Made by a program: the position numbers and the translations under genes
Part shown: positions 2,981-57,699 of the stretch, one piece after another
Layout: every line of letters begins with the position of its first letter
How positions within the stretch are numbered: position 1 is the stretch's first letter
The notes under the pieces: generated by a model
Told to the model about the DNA's origin: nothing
What the model saw: the letters and a program-made list of their open reading frames with translations, nothing else
The model's database searches: none
Source of the DNA: an uncultured Alphaproteobacteria bacterium
GTDB lineage: Bacteria; Pseudomonadota; Alphaproteobacteria; RF32; CAG-239
Direction: 5' to 3'
Assembly: GCA_949297415.1 (NCBI GenBank)
Contig: CASFSV010000007.1
Span: 4,932-68,931, forward strand
Length of the DNA stretch: 64,000 bases

Positions 2981-3907
2981 ATGAATGATTATACTACAAT
3001 AGGAATAGATGTTTCAAAACATTTTTTAGATATTTGCATATTACCGACAGGTGAAACATTGCATATTGCTAATAATAAATATGGATACAAGAAAATAGTT
3101 ACTATTTTTTCTAAGTATGAAAACATTTTTAGGATAGTAATGGAACATACAGGCGGATATCAAAAAAATATAGCAGAATATTTAATACAAAAAGGTTTTC
3201 CTGTATCTGTTGTAAATCCTATACGGATAAGATACTTCGCAAAAGCAAATGGAAAAAGAGCTAAAACAGATATTATTGATGCTCTAATATTAGCTCAATA
3301 TGGCTCAATACACAAACCGGAATTAACGAAAAGTACAGACTATAATTTGGAGGAATTACGCCAAATGGTACATAGACGTGCAAATCTGGTGGAAATGTTA
3401 ACCGCTGAAAGAAATAGTTTGGAAAAGAATCCTGGAGTAGCTGAAACTAAAAGTATAAAACATATAATTAATGTATTAGAAAAGGAGATTCAAAAAATAA
3501 CTCTATTTATAAGAGAACGCATTAAAAACAATCCTGAATTAAAAAGAAAAAGTGAAATATTGCAAACCGTATCTGGGATAGGAGCTGAATGTGCTGCTTT
3601 GTTAGTTTCTGATGTACCTGAACTTGGTAAAGTAAGCCGAAGACAGATTGCTGCTCTTATCGGATTAGCTCCAATCAATAGAGACAGTGGAATGAAAAAG
3701 GGACATGCTTTTATTCAAGGAGGGAGAAGAAATGTCAGATGCTCATTGTATATGCCTACTATCGTTGCTTCAACCCAATGTAATCCTGTATTGAAAGAAT
3801 ATTATAACAGATTGGTCGCTAAGGGTAAACCTAAGAAAGTCGCCATTATTGCTTGCATGCGTAAATTGGTAATCTTCCTCAACTCTTTACTTGCTAAAAA
3901 CTTTTAA
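2981..3907 (+). CDS. IS110 family transposase/recombinase
   Basis: N-terminus IGIDVSKHFLDICIL (DEDD/RuvC-like) and C-terminal Transposase_20-like SGIGAECAALLVSDVPELG...RQIAALIGLAP. Confidence 0.85.
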   Translation: MNDYTTIGIDVSKHFLDICILPTGETLHIANNKYGYKKIVTIFSKYENIFRIVMEHTGGYQKNIAEYLIQKGFPVSVVNPIRIRYFAKANGKRAKTDIIDALILAQYGSIHKPELTKSTDYNLEELRQMVHRRANLVEMLTAERNSLEKNPGVAETKSIKHIINVLEKEIQKITLFIRERIKNNPELKRKSEILQTVSGIGAECAALLVSDVPELGKVSRRQIAALIGLAPINRDSGMKKGHAFIQGGRRNVRCSLYMPTIVASTQCNPVLKEYYNRLVAKGKPKKVAIIACMRKLVIFLNSLLAKNF

Positions 3908-4221: not shown

Positions 4222-4262
4222 TAATCAGTGGGTCCAGGGTTCGAATCCCTGCGCGTCTACCA
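4222..4262 (+). repeat. direct repeat copy 2: orphan 3' half of tRNA-Lys (att-like)
   Basis: 41/41 identity to 549-589. No 5' half of a tRNA precedes it. It is followed by a related but diverged terminator. Confidence 0.9.
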
Positions 4263-4267
4263 ATATA

Positions 4268-4297
4268 AAGCCTCCTTTCGGAGGCTTTTCTTTTTTC
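4268..4297 (+). terminator. rho-independent terminator after the orphan tRNA fragment (bidirectional position)
   Basis: AAGCCTCC-tttc-GGAGGCTT followed by a T-rich run. Sits just downstream of the convergent gene ending at 4305. Confidence 0.6.
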
Positions 4298-5042: not shown

Positions 5043-6158
5043 CTACCTTCCGAGATAGGCCATTTTCTTTTGCTGTTGTCCATTTTGCGCTACTCGCTGT
5101 TCTCGTTCTAGTTTCGCTTTAATGCAAGCTTTGGCAAAATCTCTGCTTAATTCCATGTCTTTGGCTATAGATATATTAACGTTTTGTCCGTAACGATTAA
5201 AGTTTACCCCATTTACTTGTTCAAAATCACACGCTACATTGTGGCGATTGTTTATTACACCAGTGTGTCCATGAATTATTCCCTGATTGTCTTGTGGTAA
5301 TCTTCTTCCCTGAAACTCATCTACTCTATTATCTATGCTAATCGGCGTTCCTGGAGGCAGTTCTCTGATAAAATCATTCATCTGTTGATTTTTCTCTTGA
5401 GCTTCGTCGCTACTTATTCGGCGGCTATATGCTTGGTTTGCCACATGAACCGTCGTAAATTCTCCACCTTTTTCCAAAACAATATGAACGTTACACCCTG
5501 AATTGCTATTACCTGCTCCTCTTTCCTTCTCCGGCCAATTTGGATTACTTCCGGACACCATTTCCCCCATTCCGGCTTTGGCAAATATCATTTGTAAGCC
5601 TTGTGTGCATTTCCCTTTCGTTTCATTTTCTATATGATTAGCGGCTCTGGCTAACTTTCTATTAATTTCACCACCGCTCATTTGCTTTAACATTTCTGGA
5701 TTTTTATCTATTACAGACTGAATGTCTGCCTTTGTTACCCCTACTTTGCTGAATAAATCCTGCACAGATATATTACCGGTCATATTATCACCCAAATTTG
5801 ACGCATATATTTCTTCCACCTTGCTGCCAATATCTTCCTTCAACCACGTGGTTTGCTGGACAGCATCTTCCCATTTGATATTGCTTTGAATATTGGATTC
5901 AGGTCTTAATGGTGATAAACTTTGTGTTTGTGCTTTGACTTCTTTTATTTTTAACTTGTTTTCTAACTTTTGATTACCGCTTTTTAAACCTTCCGTATAT
6001 TTAGAGACATCGTCCGAGCTCATGACGCTACCAGTGGCTAATCCCAGAGCGACAACACCATATTTACTATAGCGATTAAAAACATCTTTAATCGTTTGCC
6101 ATGCACGTTTTGCATCTTCTTTCATTTTATTCTTTAATTCTAAACGCGTATCAGACAT
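5043..6158 (-). CDS. hypothetical protein, weak papain-fold-like Cys...His pattern in C-terminal half
   Basis: ORF with ATG at 6158 preceded by AGAGAGG (track start 6185 is GTG). GKCTQG ... HGHTGV is reminiscent of CHAP/NlpC-P60 catalytic Cys/His, but spacing is long. Assignment weak. Confidence 0.55.
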   Translation of the reverse strand: MSDTRLELKNKMKEDAKRAWQTIKDVFNRYSKYGVVALGLATGSVMSSDDVSKYTEGLKSGNQKLENKLKIKEVKAQTQSLSPLRPESNIQSNIKWEDAVQQTTWLKEDIGSKVEEIYASNLGDNMTGNISVQDLFSKVGVTKADIQSVIDKNPEMLKQMSGGEINRKLARAANHIENETKGKCTQGLQMIFAKAGMGEMVSGSNPNWPEKERGAGNSNSGCNVHIVLEKGGEFTTVHVANQAYSRRISSDEAQEKNQQMNDFIRELPPGTPISIDNRVDEFQGRRLPQDNQGIIHGHTGVINNRHNVACDFEQVNGVNFNRYGQNVNISIAKDMELSRDFAKACIKAKLEREQRVAQNGQQQKKMAYLGR

Positions 6159-42102: not shown

Positions 42103-44232
42103 ATGACTGTAAATAGAAATAACATTGATATATTATGGGATGATAATCCTATTGACATTACACAAGAAGCAAATTTTATATGGAGCATTGCCAATAAACT
42201 TCGAGGCTCATATATGCCGGATAAATACGGCGACGTTATCATTCCTATGACTATTGTAAGAAGATTAGAATGCGCACTAGTTGATACAAAAGCTAAAGTT
42301 ATTGCCAAATATAATGCTCAACATGATTATCCTGCACAAGCAATGTATAGGATTACAGGCTATCAATTTTATAATACCAGTGGTTTTGACTTGACAGAAC
42401 TATGTAATGACCCAGAACATATAGCATCAAATTTCAAATCATACATCTTGGGATTTTCATCCAATGTGCAAGATATTTTTGCTGAATTGGAGATGAATAA
42501 ACATATTGATAAAATGAATAAAGATGGGTGCTTATATCAAGTTGTTAAAGCCTTTTCAGAACTGGATTTAAGCCCGAAAACGTATGATAGTATAAAGATG
42601 GGCTACATTTTTGAAAATCTTATTGGAAGATTCTTTCAAAATGTGGATGCTGGTCAGTATTACACTGGTCGCGATATTATTAAAATGTGTGTTTCTGTGC
42701 TGATTTCCGAAGGTTGTGATGATATTTTTGATGATGGCAAAATTATTACGGTTTGCGACCAAGCCTGCGGAACTGGTGGTATGTTATCAACAGCATACAG
42801 TTATTTAAAGCATTATAACCCAACAGCAGATGTAAAACTGTTTGGACAAGAATTTATGGGCGTGTCTTATGCTGTTGGTCTGGCTGAAATGTTGATTAAA
42901 GGACAAAATGCGGATAATTTTAAGCATGCGGATACATTTAAGGAAGATTGCTTTCCGAATATGAAAATGCGTTTCCTGCTGGAAAATCCGCCCTTCGGAA
43001 CCCCGTGGTCTGGTAAAGATGCTAAAGCAGGACAGGAAGATGCCGTAAAAAAAGAATATGAAAAAGCACCATTAGGCAGATGGGGTGCAGGTTTGCCAAG
43101 TGGTGGCGATTCACAACTTTTGTTCTTGCAGTCAGCTATCTCCAAGATGGATGATAAGCTTGGCCGAGCAGCTATCATTGAAAATGGTTCGCCTTTATTC
43201 AGTGGTGGAACATCATCAGGGGAATCCCAAATCCGAAGATATTTGTTGGAACATGATTTAATTGAAGCAATTATACAGTTGCCAACAGATTTATTCTACA
43301 ACACGGGAATTACAACCTATGTGTGGATTTTATCAAAGAATAAGCGTTCTGAACGCAAGGGGAAGATTCAACTAATTGATGCTTCAAACATCTACCACAA
43401 GTTAAGAAAACCATTGGGTAATAAGAAAAATGAATTTTCTCCGGAGGATAGAGCAGAAATAACAAAACTATATACCAACTTTAAAGAAAATGAATTTTGT
43501 AAAATCTATAATAATGAAGAATTTTTATATAGAGAATATACTGTGATGCAGCCGCTACAAAGAAGTTATGCTATTACGCAAGAACGGATTGATGATTTGC
43601 TTTCCGATGGAACTTTGAGTTACCTTTATGATAAAAGCAAGGTCTATGAACTTGAAAACCAACCTGAACTTACTGGAAAAGATAAGAATAAATTAGATAA
43701 CTTCAAACAAAACAAGCCAATTTACGATACAATTATTCAAACTCTTCAAGATAATATCTCGGATAAAATTTGGATGAATCCAGAAACATTCACACCAGTA
43801 TTAACCAAGATATTAGAAAAAGCTTTGCACGATAGCATCGGTAAGAAAGATATAGAAAAGCTGGTAAAAGGCCTATCCAAAATGGATAAATCCGCCGATA
43901 TTCAAAGAGATAAAAAGGGAAATATTATTTATGATAAGGATAGCAAAGATATTGAAATTGTGAAATATCAAGAAAATATTTCAGATTATATAGCAAGAGA
44001 AGTTTTACCGCATTTGCCGGATGCTAAAGCTTTTTTTGAAGCAGAAGATGAAAATGCCATATTTGAAGAAGACTGCGGTCGCAAAATCATAAAAATTGGG
44101 GCGGAAATACCATTTACTCGCTATTTTTACAAATATCAGCAACCAACACCATCAGAAGAATTGAAAAAGAAGTTTTTAGAACTTGAAAATTCTGTTGATT
44201 CCAAGATTAAAAAACTATTCGGAGCAGCATAA
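42103..44232 (+). CDS. hsdM: Type I restriction-modification system methyltransferase subunit
   Basis: AdoMet motif VCDQACGTGGML and catalytic LLENPPFG. N-terminal HsdM_N-like IWSIANKLRG. Confidence 0.9.
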   Translation: MTVNRNNIDILWDDNPIDITQEANFIWSIANKLRGSYMPDKYGDVIIPMTIVRRLECALVDTKAKVIAKYNAQHDYPAQAMYRITGYQFYNTSGFDLTELCNDPEHIASNFKSYILGFSSNVQDIFAELEMNKHIDKMNKDGCLYQVVKAFSELDLSPKTYDSIKMGYIFENLIGRFFQNVDAGQYYTGRDIIKMCVSVLISEGCDDIFDDGKIITVCDQACGTGGMLSTAYSYLKHYNPTADVKLFGQEFMGVSYAVGLAEMLIKGQNADNFKHADTFKEDCFPNMKMRFLLENPPFGTPWSGKDAKAGQEDAVKKEYEKAPLGRWGAGLPSGGDSQLLFLQSAISKMDDKLGRAAIIENGSPLFSGGTSSGESQIRRYLLEHDLIEAIIQLPTDLFYNTGITTYVWILSKNKRSERKGKIQLIDASNIYHKLRKPLGNKKNEFSPEDRAEITKLYTNFKENEFCKIYNNEEFLYREYTVMQPLQRSYAITQERIDDLLSDGTLSYLYDKSKVYELENQPELTGKDKNKLDNFKQNKPIYDTIIQTLQDNISDKIWMNPETFTPVLTKILEKALHDSIGKKDIEKLVKGLSKMDKSADIQRDKKGNIIYDKDSKDIEIVKYQENISDYIAREVLPHLPDAKAFFEAEDENAIFEEDCGRKIIKIGAEIPFTRYFYKYQQPTPSEELKKKFLELENSVDSKIKKLFGAA

Positions 44233-44242
44233 GGAATAGCAG

Positions 44243-44887
44243 ATGGGTAATGATATGAAAAAAATAGGAAAAAATGCTGCTCTGGCACTATTAAGCCAAA
44301 TACCAATTGCATCTGCATTTAGTAAGTTTTTTGAAGATTTTGTGCAAGATGGTTGGCAAGAACGCATAGATTTATGGAAAGAAGAAGTGATAAAGCGTCT
44401 GTCTCAATTAGATGCTGAAATGGAACAAAAAATAAGAGAAACAACTAATTTTGCCAATATATTGGCATCAGCTCAAAGAGAGGCCTTGGAAGATATAGAA
44501 GAAAATAAAGTTTCTCTTTATGCAAATGCGGTTATAAATGCTATCAAAAATGAAAGTATTGATGACACAAAGAAACATATCTTTTTGAATATACTGCGTG
44601 ATTGCACATTGTTACATATTGAAGTACTTAAAGAGATTTCAAAATCAAAAGGTCCTATTGTTACAATTCGTCCTAATGGTTTCCACTCCGAAAATCCATT
44701 GTTTTTTGACTTGAAAATGAATTATAAGGATAAAGACCTTTTAGAGGCCATTATTAAAGGCTTGTCAGAACATCATTTGACTTATGTAGCCGTAGGGAAA
44801 ATTGGTGCAACTGAACCGACTATTATAACAGATTTAGGCAAAGAATTTTTAGCTTTCATTGCTGAACAGGAGAATAACGGTGACTAG
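44243..44887 (+). CDS. hypothetical helical protein embedded between hsdM and hsdS
   Basis: 214-aa ORF with AAGGAA RBS, 10 nt after the hsdM stop. Its stop overlaps or abuts the hsdS start. Contains one Rx5H string (RDCTLLH). No family confidently recognised. Confidence 0.6.
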   Translation: MGNDMKKIGKNAALALLSQIPIASAFSKFFEDFVQDGWQERIDLWKEEVIKRLSQLDAEMEQKIRETTNFANILASAQREALEDIEENKVSLYANAVINAIKNESIDDTKKHIFLNILRDCTLLHIEVLKEISKSKGPIVTIRPNGFHSENPLFFDLKMNYKDKDLLEAIIKGLSEHHLTYVAVGKIGATEPTIITDLGKEFLAFIAEQENNGD

Positions 44888-44891
44888 AGCG

Positions 44892-46160
44892 ATGAAAGAT
44901 AGTGGAATTGAGTGGATTGGTACTATTCCTGTGAACTGGAAAATTGAAAAAGGAAAATATTGCTTATCATATTTAGAAAAGCCTGTTAAACAAACAGATG
45001 AAGTTATTACTTGTTTCAGAGATGGTGAAGTAACACTTCGTAAAAATCGTAGAGAAGATGGATTTACGATATCTGATAAAGAAATCGGTTATCAGGGTAT
45101 TGATGCCGGGGACTTGGTAGTTCACGGAATGGATGGTTTTGCAGGTGCTATTGGTATTTCTGATTCAAGGGGGAAAGCATCTCCTGTTCTGAATGTTTTG
45201 GATACAAATCAAAACAAAACCTATATAATGTATTACTTGAGAAGTATGGCATATAACGGTGTGTTCCTTGCTTTAACAACTGGTATAAGAGTGAGAACAT
45301 GTGATACAAACTGGAGAAAATTAAAAGAATTGCCTTATCTTTTACCCGACAGAGAAGAACAGGATAAAATTGTTAATTGTATTAATCGGCAAGTATCTCA
45401 AACAAATGAGATAATTTTGGGCATCCAAGAACAGATAACCACATTGGAAGAATACAAGAAATCAGTTATTACCGAAGCTGTTACTAAAGGGCTTAATTCA
45501 AATGCCCCAATGAAAGACAGCGGTATTGAATGGATAGGCAAAATCCCTGCAAATTGGGAAATAAAGAGAACAAAATATCTAGCATCTTCAATAAGTAAAG
45601 GAAATGGTATTACTAAAGAAGATGTAAATAGTGATGGAAATATACAATGCATTAGATATGGAGAAATATACTCAAAGTATAAAAATTGCTTTTTGAATGC
45701 AATATCAGCAACCAATTTGAATAAAATATCCTCTCCAAAATATATATTTAAAGGTGATATATTATTTGCAGGAACAGGAGAATTAGTAGAAGAAATAGGC
45801 AAAAATATTGTTTATTTAGGAGATAAACCTTGTTTAGCAGGTGGAGATATTATCATATTAAGACATCATCAAAATTGTAAATTTTTGAATTATGCACTAT
45901 ACAGTTCTTATGCTCAATTACAAAAAAGTATAGGGAAAGCAAAGTTAAAGGTTGTTCACATATCTTCAACTGACATAGGAAATATATATGTCGCATTACC
46001 ATCTCCGACAGAACAGCAAGAAATTGCAGATTATCTTGATAGTCAATGCTCTCAAGTTGAGGAAGCTATTGCAGACAAACAAAAGCAGATTGAAACGCTT
46101 GAAGAATATAAGAAAACCTTAATTTATGAATATGTTACCGGTAAAAAGGAGGTTGCATAA
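44892..46160 (+). CDS. hsdS: Type I restriction-modification system specificity subunit
   Basis: Two target-recognition halves, each opening with MKDSGIEWIG.IP.NW.I. Conserved spacer helices ITTLEEYKKSVITEAVTKGL and IETLEEYKKTLIYEYVTGK. GTG 44880 is an alternative start. Confidence 0.9.
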   Translation: MKDSGIEWIGTIPVNWKIEKGKYCLSYLEKPVKQTDEVITCFRDGEVTLRKNRREDGFTISDKEIGYQGIDAGDLVVHGMDGFAGAIGISDSRGKASPVLNVLDTNQNKTYIMYYLRSMAYNGVFLALTTGIRVRTCDTNWRKLKELPYLLPDREEQDKIVNCINRQVSQTNEIILGIQEQITTLEEYKKSVITEAVTKGLNSNAPMKDSGIEWIGKIPANWEIKRTKYLASSISKGNGITKEDVNSDGNIQCIRYGEIYSKYKNCFLNAISATNLNKISSPKYIFKGDILFAGTGELVEEIGKNIVYLGDKPCLAGGDIIILRHHQNCKFLNYALYSSYAQLQKSIGKAKLKVVHISSTDIGNIYVALPSPTEQQEIADYLDSQCSQVEEAIADKQKQIETLEEYKKTLIYEYVTGKKEVA

Positions 46161-49132
46161 TGAATATTATCCAATCAGAGAAAGAGTATCAGGCATTTAT
46201 TTTAGATTATTTGCATAAGCAAAATGGTTATGTAATCCGCAAAAATGCTAACTTTGATAGATATAACGCTATGGATAAAGAGTTGTTGTTCAAGTTTTTG
46301 AGCGATACGCAACCAAAGCAAATGGAAACATTAAGAAAAATCTACAAATCTGATTTGGAGAATACCCTTATCAATTATATCAATAGCGAAATAAGCAAAC
46401 CAAAGAGTAGCTTATTATCTGTATTAAAGCACGGTATTGACATTGCAAACAGTGTCCATTTAGATTTTATGTTCACGAAACCTGCAACAAATTTTAATAA
46501 AGAAGCAACCAAGCAGTATGAGCAAAATATCTTCTCGGCAGCTGAAGAAATATGGGCAAATGATAAGGAAAGAGTTGATGTTGTTATCTTCTTAAATGGT
46601 TTTGCGATTATGTCCTTTGAATTAAAGTGCAATCATGCCGGACAATCTTATCAAGATGCTATCTATCAATATCGCACCGAAAGAACACCTACCAATCGCC
46701 TATTCTTATTCAAAAGTGGATGTTTGGTAAATTTTGCCATGGACTTAGAACGGGTCTATATGACTACAAAACTAGAAGGAGAATCGACATTTTTCTTACC
46801 ATTTAATATGGGAAATGGCGAAGGTGTTAATGCTGGTGCAGGAAACCCGATATTGGAAGACAAATATAGCGTTTCATATATGTGGGAAGATGTTTTACAA
46901 AAAGATTCTATTTTGGAGCTTATAAGCAAATTTATTCTCCTTGAAGTAAAAGAAAAAGAAGATGAAAATACAGGAAAGAAATCTATTAAAGAAAACATTA
47001 TCTTTCCAAGATTTCATCAGAGAGATGTATTGCATAAGGTTTTGAATGATGTTAGGGAAAACGGAACATCGCAAAACTATCTCATTCAACACAGTGCTGG
47101 TTCTGGCAAAACCTATTCTATTGCTTGGTTAGCACATCGTTTAGCTTCTCTGCATGATGAACAAAACAAAATTATTTTTGATAATATTGTGATTATTACG
47201 GATAGAATTGTTGTCGATAGACAATTACAAGATGCTGTAAAAAGCATTGAACACAAGTCAGGCGTTATTAGAGTTATGGATGATAAATGCAATTCATCAG
47301 ACCTTGCAACAGCTTTGAAGGGTAATACTAAGATTATTGCAACAACAATTCAAAAATTCCCTTATATTGTCAGCGAAGTTTCTAACTTAAAAAAGAAAAA
47401 GTTTGCCGTTATTATTGATGAAGCACATTCTTCTACGGCAGGTAAAGATATGATAGCCGTATCAAAGACTTTAGGTGCAGGTGAAATTCAGGACGAAGTA
47501 TCTACAGAAGATTTGATTGTAGAAGAAATCAATAAACACGGAAAACAAGTCAACGTTTCAGTATTTGCTTTTACAGCCACCCCAAAACCAACAACTCTGA
47601 ACTTGTTTGGTAGGGTTAATAGTAAGGGACAAAGAGAAGCTTTCCATATCTATTCTATGAAACAGGCCATAGAAGAAGGTTTTATTTTGGATGTTTTACA
47701 AAACTATACCACTTATGACACATATTATCGCTTGAACAAAGAAATTAAAGATGACCCAAAATGTAAAACAAATGCTGCAAAACGACAAATTGCTCGTTTT
47801 GTTGAATTACATGAAACTAACATCGCTCAAAGAATTGAAGTTATTGTGGAGCATTTCAGAACAACTGTTATGCAGGAACTCAATGGCAGAGCAAAGGCTA
47901 TGGTTATTACAGCTTCCAGAGAAGGTGCTGTAAAGTATTGCCAAGCATTTAAGAACTATATAAGCAAAAAGGGATATGAAGGTATTGATGCTTTGGTCGC
48001 ATTCTCAGGCAAAGTTACAATGCGAGAAGATGGAAAAGAATATACAGAAGCAGGAATGAACGGTTTTAGCGAAGACAAATTACCTAAAGAGTTTGAAAAA
48101 GATGATTATAAGGTTTTGTTAGTTGCTAACAAGTATCAAACAGGGTTTGACCAACCAAAACTTTGTGCAATGTATATTTTAAAGACTTTGAAGGGAGTAA
48201 ATGCTGTTCAAACACTATCAAGATTAAACAGAATTTGTCCACCATATAACAAGCAAACCTTCATTTTGGATTTTGTAAACAGTTATAAGGATATGGAGGA
48301 TGCTTTCTCCAAATATTATACTGTTACGCTGCTGTCCAATTCCGTAACACCTAACCAAATTTATGACATTGAAGTAAAAATTGATGGGTTCTGCATTATT
48401 GATCCTTCCGACATTGAAGCTGCAAATGATTTACTCTATAAAGATAATATTACTGCAACAGACAAGAAAAAACTAACATTTATATTCCAAAAGACCAAGA
48501 AATTTATAGAACAAATGGATGATGAAAAGCAAAAAGAATTTGTAACAACCTTAAAAGGTTTTGTCAGATTTTATGAGTTTTTGTTACAAGTTACATGCTT
48601 TGAAGATAAAGAACTCCACAAAAAGTATAATTTTATTACCTGTTTGCTTTCTTACATCAATATTAAACATGCTGGTGGAGGATTTAATTTAGATGGGAAA
48701 ATTCAGGCTATGAACTTTGTTCAGAAGAAGACAGGCGAACACAAGAAGACCAATATCAAATCTAATCCTATTGTTACATTGCCAACTGCAGAAACGCTTG
48801 TTTTGCCGGAAGATAAAGTTCAAAAACTTTCTGAAATAATTGCTCAAATCAATAATATGACTGGTAAAAACTATGACAATGATGTTGCGGTTAAAGCAAT
48901 GCTTCAGATTAGGGACATTATGCTAAAATCGGACAAGTTGAAAACATCAGCCAAGAATAACACAGTAAAAAACTTTGAGTTGGCTTATTTTGATAATGTA
49001 AATGATGCTTTGATTGAAGGATTATCGCAAAACCAAGATTTCTTTACCTTATTGTTAAATAATGATAATATAAAGAAAGAAATTCTCGGTATTTTTGTCG
49101 ATGAAATTTATAATAGTTTAAATAAAGCATAA
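46160..49132 (+). CDS. hsdR: Type I restriction endonuclease subunit R
   Basis: 990 aa with HSAGSGKTYS Walker A, IIDEAHSS DEAH box, QTLSRLNR motif VI and an N-terminal nuclease region. ATG overlaps the hsdS stop (ATAATG). Confidence 0.9.
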   Translation: MNIIQSEKEYQAFILDYLHKQNGYVIRKNANFDRYNAMDKELLFKFLSDTQPKQMETLRKIYKSDLENTLINYINSEISKPKSSLLSVLKHGIDIANSVHLDFMFTKPATNFNKEATKQYEQNIFSAAEEIWANDKERVDVVIFLNGFAIMSFELKCNHAGQSYQDAIYQYRTERTPTNRLFLFKSGCLVNFAMDLERVYMTTKLEGESTFFLPFNMGNGEGVNAGAGNPILEDKYSVSYMWEDVLQKDSILELISKFILLEVKEKEDENTGKKSIKENIIFPRFHQRDVLHKVLNDVRENGTSQNYLIQHSAGSGKTYSIAWLAHRLASLHDEQNKIIFDNIVIITDRIVVDRQLQDAVKSIEHKSGVIRVMDDKCNSSDLATALKGNTKIIATTIQKFPYIVSEVSNLKKKKFAVIIDEAHSSTAGKDMIAVSKTLGAGEIQDEVSTEDLIVEEINKHGKQVNVSVFAFTATPKPTTLNLFGRVNSKGQREAFHIYSMKQAIEEGFILDVLQNYTTYDTYYRLNKEIKDDPKCKTNAAKRQIARFVELHETNIAQRIEVIVEHFRTTVMQELNGRAKAMVITASREGAVKYCQAFKNYISKKGYEGIDALVAFSGKVTMREDGKEYTEAGMNGFSEDKLPKEFEKDDYKVLLVANKYQTGFDQPKLCAMYILKTLKGVNAVQTLSRLNRICPPYNKQTFILDFVNSYKDMEDAFSKYYTVTLLSNSVTPNQIYDIEVKIDGFCIIDPSDIEAANDLLYKDNITATDKKKLTFIFQKTKKFIEQMDDEKQKEFVTTLKGFVRFYEFLLQVTCFEDKELHKKYNFITCLLSYINIKHAGGGFNLDGKIQAMNFVQKKTGEHKKTNIKSNPIVTLPTAETLVLPEDKVQKLSEIIAQINNMTGKNYDNDVAVKAMLQIRDIMLKSDKLKTSAKNNTVKNFELAYFDNVNDALIEGLSQNQDFFTLLLNNDNIKKEILGIFVDEIYNSLNKA

Positions 49133-49166: not shown

Positions 49167-49835
49167 ATGACTAAAGAGCGCGGAATTATATATATTTTAA
49201 CTAACCCAATGTTTCGAGAAGACGTTATCAAAATTGGTATAACTAAAGATTTACCCATGCGATTGAAACAACTTGGTTGCGAAACAGGGGTGCCTTGTCC
49301 GTTTGAATGTTATGTCGCATATGAAATAGATAATTATAAACAAGTAGAAAAGATTATGCATAGCATTTACCGTGGTGTTGAACGGCATACAGATAAAGAA
49401 CATAAGAAAAAAGAGTTCTTTCAAGTACATCCTAGCCGAGCTGATGAAGTTTTATCTCAACTTGCCGAATTGTTAAATGGTAAAAAAGTTATTATTGATA
49501 ATCGTAAAATTTATACTTTGGAACAACAACAGATTCTTGAAGAAAGTACAAAGGCGGCCGAAAAAAATCAAATTGCTAAAAGATTTAAATTTCAAGATTA
49601 TAACATTCCTATAGGAGCTACTTTAATTTTTATTAAAGATGATAAAATTCGTTGCAAAGTTATTGAAGACAACAAGGTCAATTATAATGGAGAAATATTC
49701 AGTTTAAGCCGCCTAACAATGAATTTGATGCAAGAACGAGGTTATTTAGGTAAACATTATAACGGCTATAATTATTGGCTATACAATGATACAATCCTAA
49801 CTGATATGTCTCCATCTACCGAAGAACAAGATTAA
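49167..49835 (+). CDS. GIY-YIG (T5orf172/MUG113-type) domain protein with DUF4357-like C-terminal domain
   Basis: GIIYILTNP...VIKIGIT core and EFFQV. C-terminal FKFQDYNIPIGATLIFIKDD...VNYNGEIFSLSRL. Paralogue at 60372-60977. Confidence 0.65.
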   Translation: MTKERGIIYILTNPMFREDVIKIGITKDLPMRLKQLGCETGVPCPFECYVAYEIDNYKQVEKIMHSIYRGVERHTDKEHKKKEFFQVHPSRADEVLSQLAELLNGKKVIIDNRKIYTLEQQQILEESTKAAEKNQIAKRFKFQDYNIPIGATLIFIKDDKIRCKVIEDNKVNYNGEIFSLSRLTMNLMQERGYLGKHYNGYNYWLYNDTILTDMSPSTEEQD

Positions 49836-50749: not shown

Positions 50750-51508
50750 TCACTTTTCATTCCGGATTTGAGAATAAATTTCTTCCCAGCCGGAATTGTG
50801 CATGGCGCCCCCAACCTCAATGATATTGTCGTTCTTGCCGACAAATTCGCGCACCAATACCGGCGGCATGACTTTATCATCACTGCCGACATAGTGGATT
50901 TGCGGGATTTTGGCGAACTGTTTTCGGTAGCTTTCCAAATTCATTGATTCATTAAGCGGCGGCAGGTTGTGATATTGTGTCCATGCTAAGTGGTCGAGAT
51001 TTCCGGCAATGGTTATAATTTTTTTGACATTTAATCCCTGCTTGGCGGATGCTATCAACCCTGCAACTTGCGCCCCACCGGAGAATCCAATTAAAATAAC
51101 CGGATTGTCACCGACAATTTGTTTGACAGCTGCCTGTTCGGCGTTAATAACTTCCGGCGCAAAACGGGCGGTTGTCCAATGACGTTTGGAACAAATCGGA
51201 CTCTTGACATATTGGCATGGTCTTGCAAGATAAACGACATTAGGAGAATCGTCTCCAAAGGCTAATTCCCGCATGAGTATTCCTTTAGGTGTCGGGTCTT
51301 GCGTGGCGTGTCCGTGAGCATTAAAAGCATAACCATCGCCTTCAATGTATATTTTATAAACGCCGGAGAGATCGGTTATTTTTTGCCAGCTGGCAAGCGT
51401 AAAGTCTCTTGTCGGAATTTCTTTATAAACATACGCCGGCGGAACGGCAATACTGCTGCAGCCGCTGAGCAAAAATAATATGGCAAACAGTTTTAACATA
51501 AATTTCAA
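50750..51508 (-). CDS. alpha/beta hydrolase-fold lipoprotein
   Basis: Lipobox LLSGCSS and nucleophile elbow GFSGGAQ. Confidence 0.65.
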   Translation of the reverse strand: MKFMLKLFAILFLLSGCSSIAVPPAYVYKEIPTRDFTLASWQKITDLSGVYKIYIEGDGYAFNAHGHATQDPTPKGILMRELAFGDDSPNVVYLARPCQYVKSPICSKRHWTTARFAPEVINAEQAAVKQIVGDNPVILIGFSGGAQVAGLIASAKQGLNVKKIITIAGNLDHLAWTQYHNLPPLNESMNLESYRKQFAKIPQIHYVGSDDKVMPPVLVREFVGKNDNIIEVGGAMHNSGWEEIYSQIRNEK

Positions 51509-51573: not shown

Positions 51574-51602
51574 TTGATTCTAACTCATTTACTTTATAGA
51601 GT
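51574..51602 (+). promoter_or_regulatory. candidate promoter for the structured leader/autotransporter
   Basis: TTGATT (51574-79), 17 nt, TAGAGT (51597-602). Confidence 0.3.
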
Positions 51603-51609
51603 AGAAACG

Positions 51610-51801
51610 AGCGGGAAACTGCTTAGGGCGTCAGAAACCCTTGAAAATACTAACAGTCGTGTGCACACGACTTAAAAACTGTGCCGACTTCTTGTCTAAT
51701 GGACGGATGTCGGTGAATAAGGCTCAGCCAAATAAGCCGAGCCGTTTGTTAGTATACGGTTTCTGAACATCCGCCCGCCTTTCAAAGAAAAGCGGGTTTT
51801 T
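51610..51801 (+). promoter_or_regulatory. highly structured ~190-nt leader RNA (candidate riboswitch/attenuator or sRNA) ending in an intrinsic terminator
   Basis: A long interrupted closing helix is formed by GGGCG/CGCCC, UCAGAAACC/GGUUUCUGA and AUACUAACA/UGUUAGUAU. It encloses three hairpins. The terminator CCCGC-13 nt-GCGGG-U5 overlaps the 3' strand of the closing helix. Confidence 0.45.
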
Positions 51802-51822
51802 CTTTAACTAGTTAGAAAAAGG

Positions 51823-54270
51823 ATGTTTAATCGTATGAAAAATAAACTTTTAATTACAACGGCATTAGTGGCTTTATTTTCTGCCAATAATGCTTTTTCT
51901 CAGGTAAGAGAAGATTTGATTGTAGATTCTCAAACCCCGATCAGCAATCAGGGAATGGACGAAGAACCATATTACTACAAATCAATCAAAGTAGAAAAAG
52001 AAGGCTCATTAAATATTGAAACTTCTAATATCAAAACCGAACAAGATATTACGGTTTTAGGCGGACTGGATTTGAAAAACAGCGTTTTGGAAGCCGGAAA
52101 TGATGCCGATGACCAGCCCAATAACTCCAACATATTGTTGGATGGTGCAACCGTAACCATGAATGATTCGGATTTGGAAGCCAACGGCAACATTACCATT
52201 AAAGATACCAGCTTGAGTTCTGTTTCCACAATCGGAGAGCCGGATAATTATGGAATTTGGGCAGATGGCAATATTACCATTGAAAACAGTAATATTAATT
52301 TGGAAAAAAGCTATATTGATTCTTTCGGTGATATTACCATCGATGGCGGTGTTATCAATATGGCGAATATGGAAATTAACAGTTGGCGCGGAAACTTGAA
52401 TGTAAACGGCGGTGAAATTAATTTCAAAGGTGATGAAGATTCTGAAACACTGCTATATGCCCGCAAGGAGCTGAATATTAACGGTGGCGTTATTAATATG
52501 GGTGGTGCTAAACCTATTATTGATAATATCGCAGATTCTGAACCCGATGCCTATCCGGCGTATGATTTGAATATCAACGGCGGAACAATCAACGTTACTG
52601 GTAAACAGGCTGAAATTTCCAGCAGCAAAAACGTTAACATTAACGGCGGTACAATCAATATTGCCGAAGGCAGCACTCTGGGAATCTATGGCGGAAACGA
52701 TCAAACGCCGACAACGGCTCAGCTTGGTTCCGCAGCAATTTTGAATATTGCCGGAACATTGGACACCAGCCTGAACGGCAACGGAACGCTTAACTTTAAT
52801 TCAAACAGCGGAAAGATTACCGGCAATGTCAATATGACAAGCGGCGGCGTTATGAACGTCGGGTTGAATAATGCGGTTATTGACGGCGATGCAACATTTA
52901 ATTCTGGTTCAACGCTGAAGCTGGAAATTGCCGACGGCGGTAACGGTTCTCTGCAAGCAGCAAACATTACCGGCAAAGAAGGATCCAAACTGGCGCTGAA
53001 CATTACCAAGAAAATGGAAATAGGCCAGACTTTGGAAGATGTGGCTTTGTTGAAAGGCAATGTAGACAATCACTTTACCAATGAGATTTCCAATAACCGT
53101 TATAAGGTAACCTCGGAAGACGGTAAGAATTTTGACATTACCTATGAAAATTCGGCTTCTGATGTCGTGGCAGACGCCGGCGGTTCAGCTAACAATGCCC
53201 AAACAGCTGAAGCTTGGGATACGTTGGGACAATCATCAACAGCAAGCGACAATGCCAAAGCGGTTGCTTCGGTCTTAAACGATTTGTCGCAGAATAACGA
53301 ACAGGCTTATGTTGACGCGTTGACGGCTGTTGCACCTGAAGTTGCACCGATGGTACAGAAAACCCAAACCGAAACTGCAAATCGGGTATTCGGAGCAGTC
53401 AGCACACGCTTGACCGGCGGGTCAATCTCAACCGGCGGTGAAGGTATGTCTTCCGGCGATAACATTTTTGAACGTGCAGCCGTGTGGGTTCAGGGAATGT
53501 TTAACAAATCCAAGCTGGACGATACATCCAAAGCCAAAGGTTTTGACGCAGATTCTGCAGGTGTCACATTCGGTGCCGAGAAGTTTGTAACTGATGATAC
53601 GAAGGTTGGTATTGGTTACGCTTACACCAATACGGATATTGACGGCTTTATGAGAAGCACAGACGTTGATACGCACACGGCAATTTTGTACGGTGAATAC
53701 AAACCAAGCAACTGGTATGTAAACGGTATTGCAACATACGGCTGGTCTGATTACTCCGAAGACAAGAGTGTTGCCGGCGTTGGCGTCAAAGCTGACTATG
53801 ATGTTGAAACCTTTGGTTTACAGGCTATGACCGGTTATGACATGAATGTTAATGGTTTAGGCTTCACGCCCGAGGTTGGATTGCGTTATGTCCACATCAA
53901 ACAGGACGCTTACAAAGATTCTGCCGACCAGAAAGTCTCCGGAAACGACAGCGATATCCTGACCGGCGTTATCGGAGCAAAAGTCAGCAAGTCTTGGGAA
54001 TTGTCTAACGGTATGAACATCAAGCCGGAAGCCCGTATTGCCGCAACTTATGACCTGTTTAACGATGATGTTAATTCAGTCGTAACTCTGGCCAACGGTT
54101 CGGCTTATGCGGTCGAAGGCGAAGCTCTTGACCGTTTCGGTATGGAATTCGGTGCCGGCGTAACTGCGGAAGTTAACGACAACGTTGAGCTTTCGCTTGG
54201 TTATGAAGGTAAATTCCGTGAGGATTACCAAGACCACACTGGCTTAATTAACGCTAAATATAAGTTTTAG
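51823..54270 (+). CDS. autotransporter (type Va) outer membrane protein
   Basis: Signal peptide MKNKLLITTALVALFSANNAFS (alternative start 51835). Passenger has repeated (L/V)NINGG(V/T)IN beta-helix units. C-terminal ~270-aa beta-barrel ends in ...INAKYKF. Confidence 0.85.
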   Translation: MFNRMKNKLLITTALVALFSANNAFSQVREDLIVDSQTPISNQGMDEEPYYYKSIKVEKEGSLNIETSNIKTEQDITVLGGLDLKNSVLEAGNDADDQPNNSNILLDGATVTMNDSDLEANGNITIKDTSLSSVSTIGEPDNYGIWADGNITIENSNINLEKSYIDSFGDITIDGGVINMANMEINSWRGNLNVNGGEINFKGDEDSETLLYARKELNINGGVINMGGAKPIIDNIADSEPDAYPAYDLNINGGTINVTGKQAEISSSKNVNINGGTINIAEGSTLGIYGGNDQTPTTAQLGSAAILNIAGTLDTSLNGNGTLNFNSNSGKITGNVNMTSGGVMNVGLNNAVIDGDATFNSGSTLKLEIADGGNGSLQAANITGKEGSKLALNITKKMEIGQTLEDVALLKGNVDNHFTNEISNNRYKVTSEDGKNFDITYENSASDVVADAGGSANNAQTAEAWDTLGQSSTASDNAKAVASVLNDLSQNNEQAYVDALTAVAPEVAPMVQKTQTETANRVFGAVSTRLTGGSISTGGEGMSSGDNIFERAAVWVQGMFNKSKLDDTSKAKGFDADSAGVTFGAEKFVTDDTKVGIGYAYTNTDIDGFMRSTDVDTHTAILYGEYKPSNWYVNGIATYGWSDYSEDKSVAGVGVKADYDVETFGLQAMTGYDMNVNGLGFTPEVGLRYVHIKQDAYKDSADQKVSGNDSDILTGVIGAKVSKSWELSNGMNIKPEARIAATYDLFNDDVNSVVTLANGSAYAVEGEALDRFGMEFGAGVTAEVNDNVELSLGYEGKFREDYQDHTGLINAKYKF

Positions 54271-55119: not shown

Positions 55120-55893
55120 TTATATAAAACGCCAAAGATTTACACCTAAAAGCGCTAATAAAGTTAATAAAGCAAACAACCCACCAAAGCAAATTCCAAA
55201 TAGAAATTCAATAATTCCAATTTCTTTATCTTTACAGATTGATAATAAGGACTTTGCTACAAACGCAAAAAAAGATGCCGGAACAAAACATTCAAATAAG
55301 TATCCTGGAACAACAATAAATCCACGAACAACAAGAATGGCTGCTAAAATTGAAAGAATAATCATTATCCCTTCTGAAACGTTAAATTTATCAGAAGCCA
55401 CTATTTTATTTTTGTGATTTATTAATAGCTTGGTTCTTTTTTCTACTTCATTTATTTTATATACTAAATAAATCCCTATTTCTCCATCTGCTAAGTCTTT
55501 AATATTTTCCCAATTAATTAAATTTATAGCCGGAACAATATTTTTATTAATGGAACATTCTGTTGGAATAATTTCAGGAGGTCTTTTATTATTACTATTA
55601 ATTGGAGCTATACCATTATACATAAAATTACCATTCATTATTTGATTTTCAATAAATGATGTTTTATTCCAATCAATTTCTATGTCATTGTTAGATTTAT
55701 TTTCAATATTAATATTAAAGAAGATATTATTTTTAATACTGAAAACAATATCAACATTTTCATCAGAATATTTTGCTACCTGCGAATCTATATCATTTAA
55801 GAATTCCTCTCGTTTCTGATTAAATTCTTCTTCTGTAATAACGCCCTTTTCTTTTAGTTCGTTAAGTTTTTCTAATTCCTCTGCCGTAATCAT
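55120..55893 (-). CDS. N-terminal SHOCT-like domain protein with C-terminal multi-TM region
   Basis: AEELEKLNELKEKGVITEEEFNQKREEFL matches the SHOCT pattern. The C-terminal ~85 aa form 3-4 hydrophobic helices. GAGGTG RBS. Third gene of the cassette. Confidence 0.6.
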   Translation of the reverse strand: MITAEELEKLNELKEKGVITEEEFNQKREEFLNDIDSQVAKYSDENVDIVFSIKNNIFFNINIENKSNNDIEIDWNKTSFIENQIMNGNFMYNGIAPINSNNKRPPEIIPTECSINKNIVPAINLINWENIKDLADGEIGIYLVYKINEVEKRTKLLINHKNKIVASDKFNVSEGIMIILSILAAILVVRGFIVVPGYLFECFVPASFFAFVAKSLLSICKDKEIGIIEFLFGICFGGLFALLTLLALLGVNLWRFI

Positions 55894-55908
55894 TTTTTAC
55901 ACCTCAAA

Positions 55909-56337
55909 TTACAAATTATTTTCAATATAATTAAATATCTTATTTGTAATTTTTTTCTTTTCTCCCCAGTCAAAAGCTTGAAAGGAAATACATTTACCAA
56001 ATATAGAAACAGATGTAGATTGTTTTGATTTTGAGATTTGAATTAACATTGTTTGACCATACGATAACCAAGTCTTAGGTGTATCAAACATAATGATTCC
56101 TTTGTTTTTATTTGAATTGGAGATTGTATAATCAAATTCTTTTATTGCATTTTGAGCCGAATTAAATATTTTATCATAATCAGCATTAAATAACCTTTCT
56201 CCTTGTTTAGGAAGCTGAATATCTATAACATCCGATTCAATATTTAAAAGCTGTTTCTTTTTTTCGTTAAATTGATCTTCTGTAATAATACCTTTTTCTT
56301 TTAATTCAAACAATTTTTCAAGTTCCTGTGTATCCAT
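55909..56337 (-). CDS. N-terminal SHOCT-like domain protein (soluble)
   Basis: TQELEKLFELKEKGIITEDQFNEKKKQLL followed by an unknown ~105-aa domain. Second gene of the cassette. Confidence 0.6.
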   Translation of the reverse strand: MDTQELEKLFELKEKGIITEDQFNEKKKQLLNIESDVIDIQLPKQGERLFNADYDKIFNSAQNAIKEFDYTISNSNKNKGIIMFDTPKTWLSYGQTMLIQISKSKQSTSVSIFGKCISFQAFDWGEKKKITNKIFNYIENNL

Positions 56338-56365
56338 AATTTTAACCTTTCATAAGAAATTAAAC

Positions 56366-57093: not shown

Positions 57094-57699
57094 ATGTCGG
57101 TTATTGCATATATAAGGAAAAGTACGGATAAACAGTCATTTGAACATCAGGAATATGAAATTGAACAATACGCAGAAAAGCACAACCTTAAAATAGATAG
57201 ATGGGTTGAAGAAAGCATTTCCAGTCGGAAAGAACTTAAAAAACGACAATTAGGAAAATTGCTGGAAGAGCTACAAGACGGAGATATTTTGATAGCAACT
57301 GAAATTTCAAGACTTGGAAGGTCATTACTTGAAGTAATGGGAATTTTACAAACTTGTTTAGAGAAAAATTGTCAGGTATGGACTATTAAAGAATCATATA
57401 ACCTGAAAAATGATTTGCAATCGCAACTACTTGCCGTTGTATTTTCTATAGGAGTAAGCATTGAGCGTTCTTTGCTTTCACAAAGAACAAAAACAGCATT
57501 AGATGCTAAAAAAGCCGCGGGAATTAAACTAGGTCGTCCTTTCGGAGCAGAAAGCAAAAAACTAAAATTATCAAAAAATACCAAAAGAATAAGAGATTTA
57601 TTGGATAAGAAAGTTCCCAAAGCCCAAATTGCCAGAATAATGGGGGTACAAAAAATAACTTTAAGACGATTTATCAAACGTATGGGATGGAGTGATTAA
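57094..57699 (+). CDS. small serine recombinase (resolvase/invertase family)
   Basis: VIAYIRKSTDKQS catalytic Ser context, ISRLGRS, and C-terminal HTH KAQIARIMGVQKITLRRFIKR. Confidence 0.85.
   Translation: MSVIAYIRKSTDKQSFEHQEYEIEQYAEKHNLKIDRWVEESISSRKELKKRQLGKLLEELQDGDILIATEISRLGRSLLEVMGILQTCLEKNCQVWTIKESYNLKNDLQSQLLAVVFSIGVSIERSLLSQRTKTALDAKKAAGIKLGRPFGAESKKLKLSKNTKRIRDLLDKKVPKAQIARIMGVQKITLRRFIKRMGWSD

Follow-up and report, generated by a model that had tools for sequence, protein, structure and literature searches.

Positions 51609-51827 of the window, the 64,000-nucleotide stretch of uncultured alphaproteobacterial DNA analysed here, probably form the 5' leader of an autotransporter mRNA, one of a large family of RNA switches that act in cis; we found no earlier description of this family. 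Comparison of homologues establishes the helices of this leader, the mutual exclusivity of two of its structures, the family itself and its association with a particular set of genes. Apart from two tRNAs, an Rfam 15 scan of the window at gathering thresholds returned nothing, and E-value scans (E <= 10) of the region and eight relatives brought no Rfam family to threshold. A known riboswitch, a T-box or a thermometer was rejected as Rfam lends none of them support. The original prediction that the RNA matches no known class agrees with these scans, the only match being a sub-threshold one to sRNA-Xcc1. Searches of the literature by name and by sequence, including 200 of the 408 files of the PMC8040213 supplement, found no description of the leader.

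The leader region lies between a divergent hydrolase-like ORF on the minus strand (50750-51508) and the autotransporter gene (Table 1). The product of this gene is 815 or 811 aa long; public gene calls give 811 aa, equivalent to a start at 51835, and ATG 51835 is the likely start codon. That a structured RNA occupies the 5' leader of this gene had been proposed from the letters alone, and the proposal is supported; all the sequences and coordinates quoted for it are present in the window. Evidence for the proposed promoter, TTGATT-17-TAGAGT, is divided: a -35-like CTTGA motif recurs in relatives at a fixed distance, ~30-36 nt 5' of the P0 hairpin, whereas a strict consensus promoter scan gave the TTGATT/TAGAGT site no score. 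Transcription is predicted to start at or adjoining G51609. A hairpin adjoins the 5' side of the core (P0) in 100 of 104 distinct members, with G-U to A-U changes among close strains. A search for repeat copies of the element within the window found none, leaving a single copy there.

Table 1. Coordinates of the leader, its structural elements and the adjoining gene in the window
Feature	Position	Strand	Description	Basis
Promoter-like site	51576..51604	+	TTGATT, 17-nt spacer, TAGAGT	predicted from sequence
P0	51609..51624	+	5'-terminal hairpin GAGCGG-GAAA-CUGCUU, variable in sequence	comparison with relatives
P1*	51625..51641	+	AGGG 51625-28 with CCCU 51638-41; 9-nt loop holds P2 5' strand	covariation
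P2 5' strand	51630..51637	+	(G)UCAGAAA, pairs with 51760-51767; pseudoknot with P1* loop	covariation
P3 5' strand	51647..51654	+	AUACUAAC, pairs with 51748-51755; hypervariable helix	covariation
H1	51655..51672	+	hairpin AGUCGU...ACGACU	6/6 pairs covary
PK-B		+	H1 loop GCACA (51663-67) with UGUGC (51680-84)	covariation counts
H2	51685..51712	+	hairpin; 5' strand, anti-antiterminator; 3' strand GGACGGAUGU(CGG), switch strand and SD mimic	covariation
Hp1		+	UCGGU (51710-14) with GCCGA (51736-40) around mini-hairpin GGC-UCA-GCC; alternative to H3	covariation
Junction and H3	51713..51741	+	invariant GUGAAUAAGG junction; H3 (51723-28/51736-41), AAAUAA loop	invariant columns
P4	51742..51759	+	CCGU 51742-45 with ACGG 51756-59; loop is U-linker plus P3 3' strand (51748-55)	covariation
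P2 3' strand and tail	51760..51779	+	UUUCUGA(A), then tail ACAUCCGCCCGCC	covariation
Intrinsic terminator	51773..51801	+	GCCCGC...GCGGGU hairpin and U5	-12.6 kcal/mol; covariation
SD region	51819..51837	+	AAGGAUGUU (51819-27), complementary to tail AACAUCC (51766-72)	sequence
Autotransporter gene	51835..54270	+	predicted regulated gene, a classical autotransporter	Pfam PF03797, E = 1.5e-53

The flanks of the locus carry a Type I R-M system (HsdM, HsdS, HsdR; 42103-49132), a T5orf172 protein (49167-49835) and a small serine recombinase/invertase-like gene (57094-57699), and the neighbourhood looks like a variable 'island'. Also in the window, the 5' ends (55813-55896 and 56260-56343, 73% identical) of two adjacent minus-strand genes encoding SHOCT domains mark these genes as tandem paralogues. 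Further away, at 513-596, lies a tRNA (513-586) whose 3' 48 nt are repeated 3.7 kb downstream (4222-4269, 98% identity); the segment between the repeats holds an IS110-family transposase (ORF 2981-3907) and two SNase-like proteins, and has the appearance of an element inserted into the tRNA gene. A bridge RNA is usual upstream of the recombinase in IS110 elements.

The leader has more than 120 homologues in ~85 gut alphaproteobacterial MAGs. Scanning species-representative genomes with the fixed 19-base pattern GNNGGATGTCGGTGAATAAGG yielded at least 119 loci, and among those listed all but one are true homologues; in 119 members, GGATGTCGGTGAATAAGG was fixed by the search pattern itself. The loci are nearly all from MAGs of uncultured gut Alphaproteobacteria from human, deer, yak, sheep, buffalo, rabbit and mouse. 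A covariance model (R1) gave 105 + 23 matches in the fetched DNA, extra copies included, with four divergent ones (L093:4012-4154, L038:2055-2193, L068:2382-2569 and L118:5700-5883). The DNA sampled, only ~1 Mb, holds more than 120 copies. The sequence of the window is also that of CALXZL010000003.1 (BRZ_FT__bin57), a genome with at least four leader copies (L034, L062, L080, L133), and other genomes carry at least three to four each. As far as sampled, the leader is confined to gut Alphaproteobacteria, abundant yet uncultured, that live in humans, ruminants, rabbits and mice. Some leader-bearing MAGs (L022, L031/L032/L092/L112, L040, L110 and L122) are labelled Lachnospiraceae, Eubacteriales, Bacteroidaceae, Lactobacillales or Gastranaerophilales; since neither the leaders in these MAGs nor the genes downstream depart from the pattern of the family, mis-binning or mislabelling is more likely than spread. 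The same autotransporter is carried by metagenomic contigs and by a faecal 'Bacteriophage sp.' contig (UNVERIFIED); the latter, with the same locus, was the sole phage-database match, and a phage origin was rejected. Viral-contig matches to an 18-mer proved to be chance matches inside a coding gene, and a plasmid search gave no match.

The minimum free energy fold of 51600-51805 (RNAfold; -76.8 kcal/mol, z = -5.76, with none of 200 shuffles as good) reproduces the helices and terminator first proposed by eye. The opposite strand folds equally well, so thermodynamics alone cannot settle whether the element acts as RNA or DNA. The raw MAFFT alignment yielded a mixed structure in RNAalifold and was therefore replaced by a model-based one, in which 93.3% of cells are paired and 26-28 pairs change on both sides (28/45 compensatory), by statistics not corrected for phylogeny. 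The observed covariation was reached by none of 500 shuffles, and slid controls scored ~0.05 against 0.37-0.39. Within helices, G·U and U·G together number 267 against 52 for A·C and C·A, an excess that identifies RNA of the gene-sense strand as the functional form.

Comparative data, with pseudoknots derived by eye and from counts, point to a pseudoknotted fold. The original prediction had drawn a plain four-way junction within a long interrupted closing helix, a layout that is correct only in part. Within the closing helix, the segments 51631-37/51760-66 and 51647-54/51748-55 have strong comparative support, whereas the pairing of GGGCG (51626-30) with CGCCC (51772-76) is not supported: G51630 becomes C, U or A in 35/105 members without compensation, and its GGG covaries instead with CCC(U) at 51638-41. 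The latter pairing, P1*, is 95.5% paired, with double changes in two of its four pairs, U-A and C-G variants of the closing pair, and GAGG/CCUC and GAGC/GCUC in divergent members. P2, in which the P1* loop (51631-37) pairs with 51760-66, corresponds to what had been drawn as the closing helix; it shows CG/AU, GC/AU and AU/GC swaps at three pairs, and C30-G67 covaries in one subfamily. The two hairpins placed at 51656-71 and 51684-51713 have strong comparative support as 51655-72 (H1) and 51685-51712 (H2). From the loop of H1, GCAY pairs with RUGC immediately 5' of H2 (PK-B; GCAC/GUGC 38, GCAU/AUGC 36, GCAU/GUGC 5, GCAC/AUGC 0), and subfamilies keep this pairing with other sequences (GUGUAU/AUACGC, AUGCGC, AUGCAC). 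A third hairpin, placed at 51721-43, holds in part: its upper portion, H3, stands, kept largely through wobble changes, whereas its bottom two pairs compete with the covarying CCGU/ACGG helix (P4).

P4 changes from G-C to A-U in five members (CCAU/AUGG), and divergent members have CUAU/GUAG and UCAU/AUGA. It crosses P3, and its U-linker grows with P3 length (Spearman 0.56, p = 9e-10), which fits what a P4/P3 pseudoknot would require. P3 itself shows compensatory changes in 8/8 pairs (90-98% paired), and the whole helix is swapped between near-identical strains. Whole-helix compensatory swaps are already seen in the faecal 'Bacteriophage sp.' contig and the metagenomic contigs with the same autotransporter, where CAG/CUG becomes CGA/UCG, and AUACUAACA/UGUUAGUAU becomes AUAAAGCUA/UAGCUUUAU or AUAUCUACA/UGUAGAUAU. 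Strains L012-L015 and L009-L011, with autotransporters 98-100% identical, differ from the window (51609-51655 and 51747-51755) by at least five positions on either side of P3 and in P0 as well, in a leader that is otherwise identical, which suggests gene conversion among paralogous leaders, not point mutation. Pairing of P3 or P0 with the downstream RBS was considered and dropped, as no covariation between strains was seen by eye. In the main family several of the key strands do not vary, so the evidence for P1*, P4, Hp1 and the antiterminator comes from a few independent changes and a few divergent members.

The centre of the proposed switch is the 3' strand of H2 (51701-10, GGACGGAUGU), which is complementary to 51767-76 of the tail (ACAUCCGCCC). 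The tail can pair with three partners: firstly, this H2 strand, forming an antiterminator; secondly, the 3' arm of the terminator, whose 5' arm is the 3' part of the tail; thirdly, the SD. H2 has ten pairs, is 92% paired and shows double changes in four, and divergent members have perfect hairpins of other sequence. The antiterminator is 92.4% paired (slid controls 29-50%), with double changes in 4/9 pairs and the covariants ACCGGAAG/CUUCCGGU, GGUUGGAAG/CUUCCAACC, GGUCGGGGUG/CACUCCGGCC and GGGUGGAUG/CAUCCACCC, as well as GGAUAU/AUAUCC in L118. As H2 and the antiterminator helix each covary, two mutually exclusive structures are both conserved. Hp1 forms together with the antiterminator and covaries in one main-family and three divergent members (UCGAC/GUCGA, GCAGU/ACUGC, AUGGU/AUCAU, GUUUUGAC/GUUAAAAC). 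An intrinsic terminator had been proposed at this place, and a terminator-like hairpin is present in 93/99 members, with CCCACC/GGUGGG, CCCGCU/AGCGGG and UCCACUUG/CAAGUGGA as covariants. Its involvement in mutually exclusive pairing likewise holds; the competing strand is the 3' strand of H2, not the closing helix or the 5' GCGGG (51611-15), which is not conserved even in near-identical strains (GAGCAGG or GAGTAG).

To this layout we add the SD as part of the expression platform. GGAUG occurs in 54/112 leader-associated RBS contexts as compared to 16/432 background genes, a ~13-fold enrichment, and L093 has a compensatory SD/tail change. An expression platform with mutually exclusive structures (covarying H2, antiterminator and terminator, with SD complementarity) and a conserved, covarying structured domain in the 5' UTR are both features by which riboswitches in general are recognised. 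Local energies are -9.1 kcal/mol for H2 and -12.6 kcal/mol each for antiterminator and terminator, and a calculation restricted to nested pairs favours the terminator state by ~20 kcal/mol.

We propose that transcription would start at the P0 hairpin, and that a compact pseudoknotted sensor domain (P1*, P2, P3, P4, H1 with its loop pairing, H2 and H3) would fold next. In the OFF state, H2 would be closed and the tail free; the CCGCCCGCC part of the tail would form the terminator, and its AACAUCC part could mask the SD. In the ON state, the 3' strand of H2 would capture the tail, with Hp1, leaving neither terminator nor SD mask, and the gene would be transcribed and translated. Energies and the order in which the strands are made predict OFF as the default. 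The leader is predicted to control termination, and probably translation as well. A signal is presumed to shift the balance between the two states, and the direction of the response is likewise presumed; most likely, the invariant core (GUGAAUAAGG, AAAUAAGCCGAG and UUUUCGAA) would bind the signal, either a small ligand or an ion.

The genes downstream have a coherent theme, that of surface or 'contingency' functions. An ORF starts 35-60 nt downstream of the tail in nearly all cases, and its product has a signal-peptide-like N-terminus, by a heuristic measure, in about three quarters. The products include 23 autotransporters, outer membrane beta-barrel/Opacity-type proteins, prepilin-type (pilin-like) proteins, lipoproteins (PEGA, DUF2846, TRL), tail-collar and Lcl-like proteins, GT29 and GT2 glycosyltransferases, APH-type kinases, R-M enzymes (EcoRI-type methylase, Mrr nuclease), ankyrin proteins and HTH proteins; genes of these kinds also follow the divergent leaders. 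As pointers to a ligand through its synthesis, transport or use, the downstream genes give no metabolic clue, which is unusual for genes under riboswitch control. A conserved neighbouring regulator gene was also sought and not found, 71 of 96 upstream neighbours being mutually unrelated singletons.

The leader most resembles transcription-terminating riboswitches with dual control of transcription and translation: firstly, it is conserved, structured and 5'; secondly, it has exclusive anti-antiterminator, antiterminator and terminator helices, with the SD masked by the same shared strand; thirdly, it occurs in several copies per genome that form a regulon. It differs from them in corresponding to no described Rfam 15 class, in placing the shared strand in an internal hairpin, not P1, and in a regulon of surface/contingency genes rather than metabolism and transport. 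c-di-GMP riboswitches (GEMM-I/II) likewise precede genes for pilins, adhesins and surface proteins and occur several times per genome. The GEMM-I/II models gave no match to the leader even at E <= 10, and no GG[DE]EF motif was found in 1.03 Mb of host-genome DNA, weak evidence against c-di-GMP signalling there. The complexity of the leader and its invariant core favour a putative ligand-sensing riboswitch. A fuller version of this reading, which we put forward tentatively as somewhat short of probable, is that both the riboswitch class and its pseudoknotted fold are new, that the leader senses a host- or envelope-related small molecule or ion, and that termination combined with SD masking co-ordinates the whole variable surface repertoire of an order of gut Alphaproteobacteria that is widespread but uncultured, from adhesins, porins, lipoproteins and pilins to enzymes that modify glycans and those of R-M systems.

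An unlikely competitor is a protein-dependent attenuator, in which an RNA-binding protein, such as a CsrA-like GGA binder or a dedicated antiterminator, on the GGAUGU strands of H2 and the SD sets the balance with no small ligand. GGAUGU is indeed present in both the switch strand and the SD, and resembles the 3' half of the CsrA SELEX consensus, RUACARGGAUGU; a surface-protein regulon would suit a global post-transcriptional regulator, as would a gene set with no metabolic signature. Both copies of GGAUGU are, however, fully explained by complementarity to the same tail, with which they covary; so elaborate a pseudoknotted fold is atypical of protein-binding leaders, and no regulator gene is linked to the leaders, as their mostly singleton upstream neighbours attest.

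The nearest Rfam families are sRNA-Xcc1 (RF02221) and, with a weaker likeness, the C4-type upstream antisense RNAs (RF01695). In outline, the antiterminator fold of the leader's 3' half is like theirs, with a closing helix, then a mini-hairpin set in a hairpin whose internal loops are A-rich, and last a second hairpin. The leader has in addition a 5' domain of ~90 nt (P1*, P2, P3, H1, H2) and a terminator, and its second hairpin has a loop whose partner lies upstream (P3) rather than at the RBS, where the loop of a genuine sRNA-Xcc1 appears to pair. Against a gathering cut-off of 53 bits, the sRNA-Xcc1 model reaches 32.0 in the window and 28-37 among relatives, and, reciprocally, R1 gives only 6 bits on genuine sRNA-Xcc1. 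sRNA-Xcc1 is found directly upstream of symE (PMC12444791 / 10.1101/2025.06.18.660453). A genuine copy (72.6 bits) at 1498-1625 of L135, on P. aeruginosa plasmid NZ_CP093017.1, lies directly upstream of a BRO-family gene; by eye, its second-hairpin loop, CCUCUGCUUGG, is perfectly complementary to CCAAGCAGAGG at that gene's RBS, and it may act in cis on its own downstream gene. L118 has, at 5790-5990, a tandem pair of units made up of the 3' half alone (GGGCGGAUAUCGGCGAAUAAGG...AAUAUCCGCCCGCC); they lie ~100-300 nt upstream of a complete leader and resemble free-standing sRNA-Xcc1-like units.

This likeness, sub-threshold in every member, together with the 3'-half-only copies and the thermodynamic dominance of the terminator state, speaks for a leader that generates an sRNA independently of any signal: constitutive termination at the several copies in a genome would yield a stable ~190-nt RNA acting in trans, or low basal expression, and the alternative fold would serve only folding or processing. 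We judge this distinctly improbable, since both alternative structures and the SD complementarity are kept with compensation, at a cost that makes little sense without a switching function, and the leader keeps a strictly fixed place with respect to the ORF start. A wholly independent sRNA or 6S-like RNA, raised originally as an alternative, is rejected because the terminator and RBS are only ~20 nt apart, the position upstream of ORFs is constant and no 6S match appears even at E <= 10; the strand likened to the 6S 3' bubble is the junction between H1 and H2.

A DNA-level element (a MITE, recombination site, invertible segment or attC-like site) would fit the equal folding of both strands, the several copies per genome, the recombinase genes nearby in the window (the resolvase at 57094-57699 and the IS110 transposase) and the P3 and P0 differences between near-identical strains, but is largely refuted and very improbable given the strand-asymmetric excess of G·U over A·C, the constant orientation towards the downstream ORF with promoter, terminator and SD integrated, the lack of a repeat in the window and the invariance of unpaired sequences.

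The leader family is large, with at least three to four copies per genome, invariant cores and multiple pseudoknots, a complexity usual in ligand-binding RNAs or ribozymes, and it gives the search for ligands a well-defined orphan-riboswitch candidate. A further suggestion is that 'sRNAs' of the sRNA-Xcc1 type may be related cis-acting leaders. As the same leader precedes many surface/'contingency' genes, it would co-ordinate the cell-surface repertoire; it would thereby define an RNA-level regulon of such genes and give a handle on surface remodelling in unstudied symbionts.
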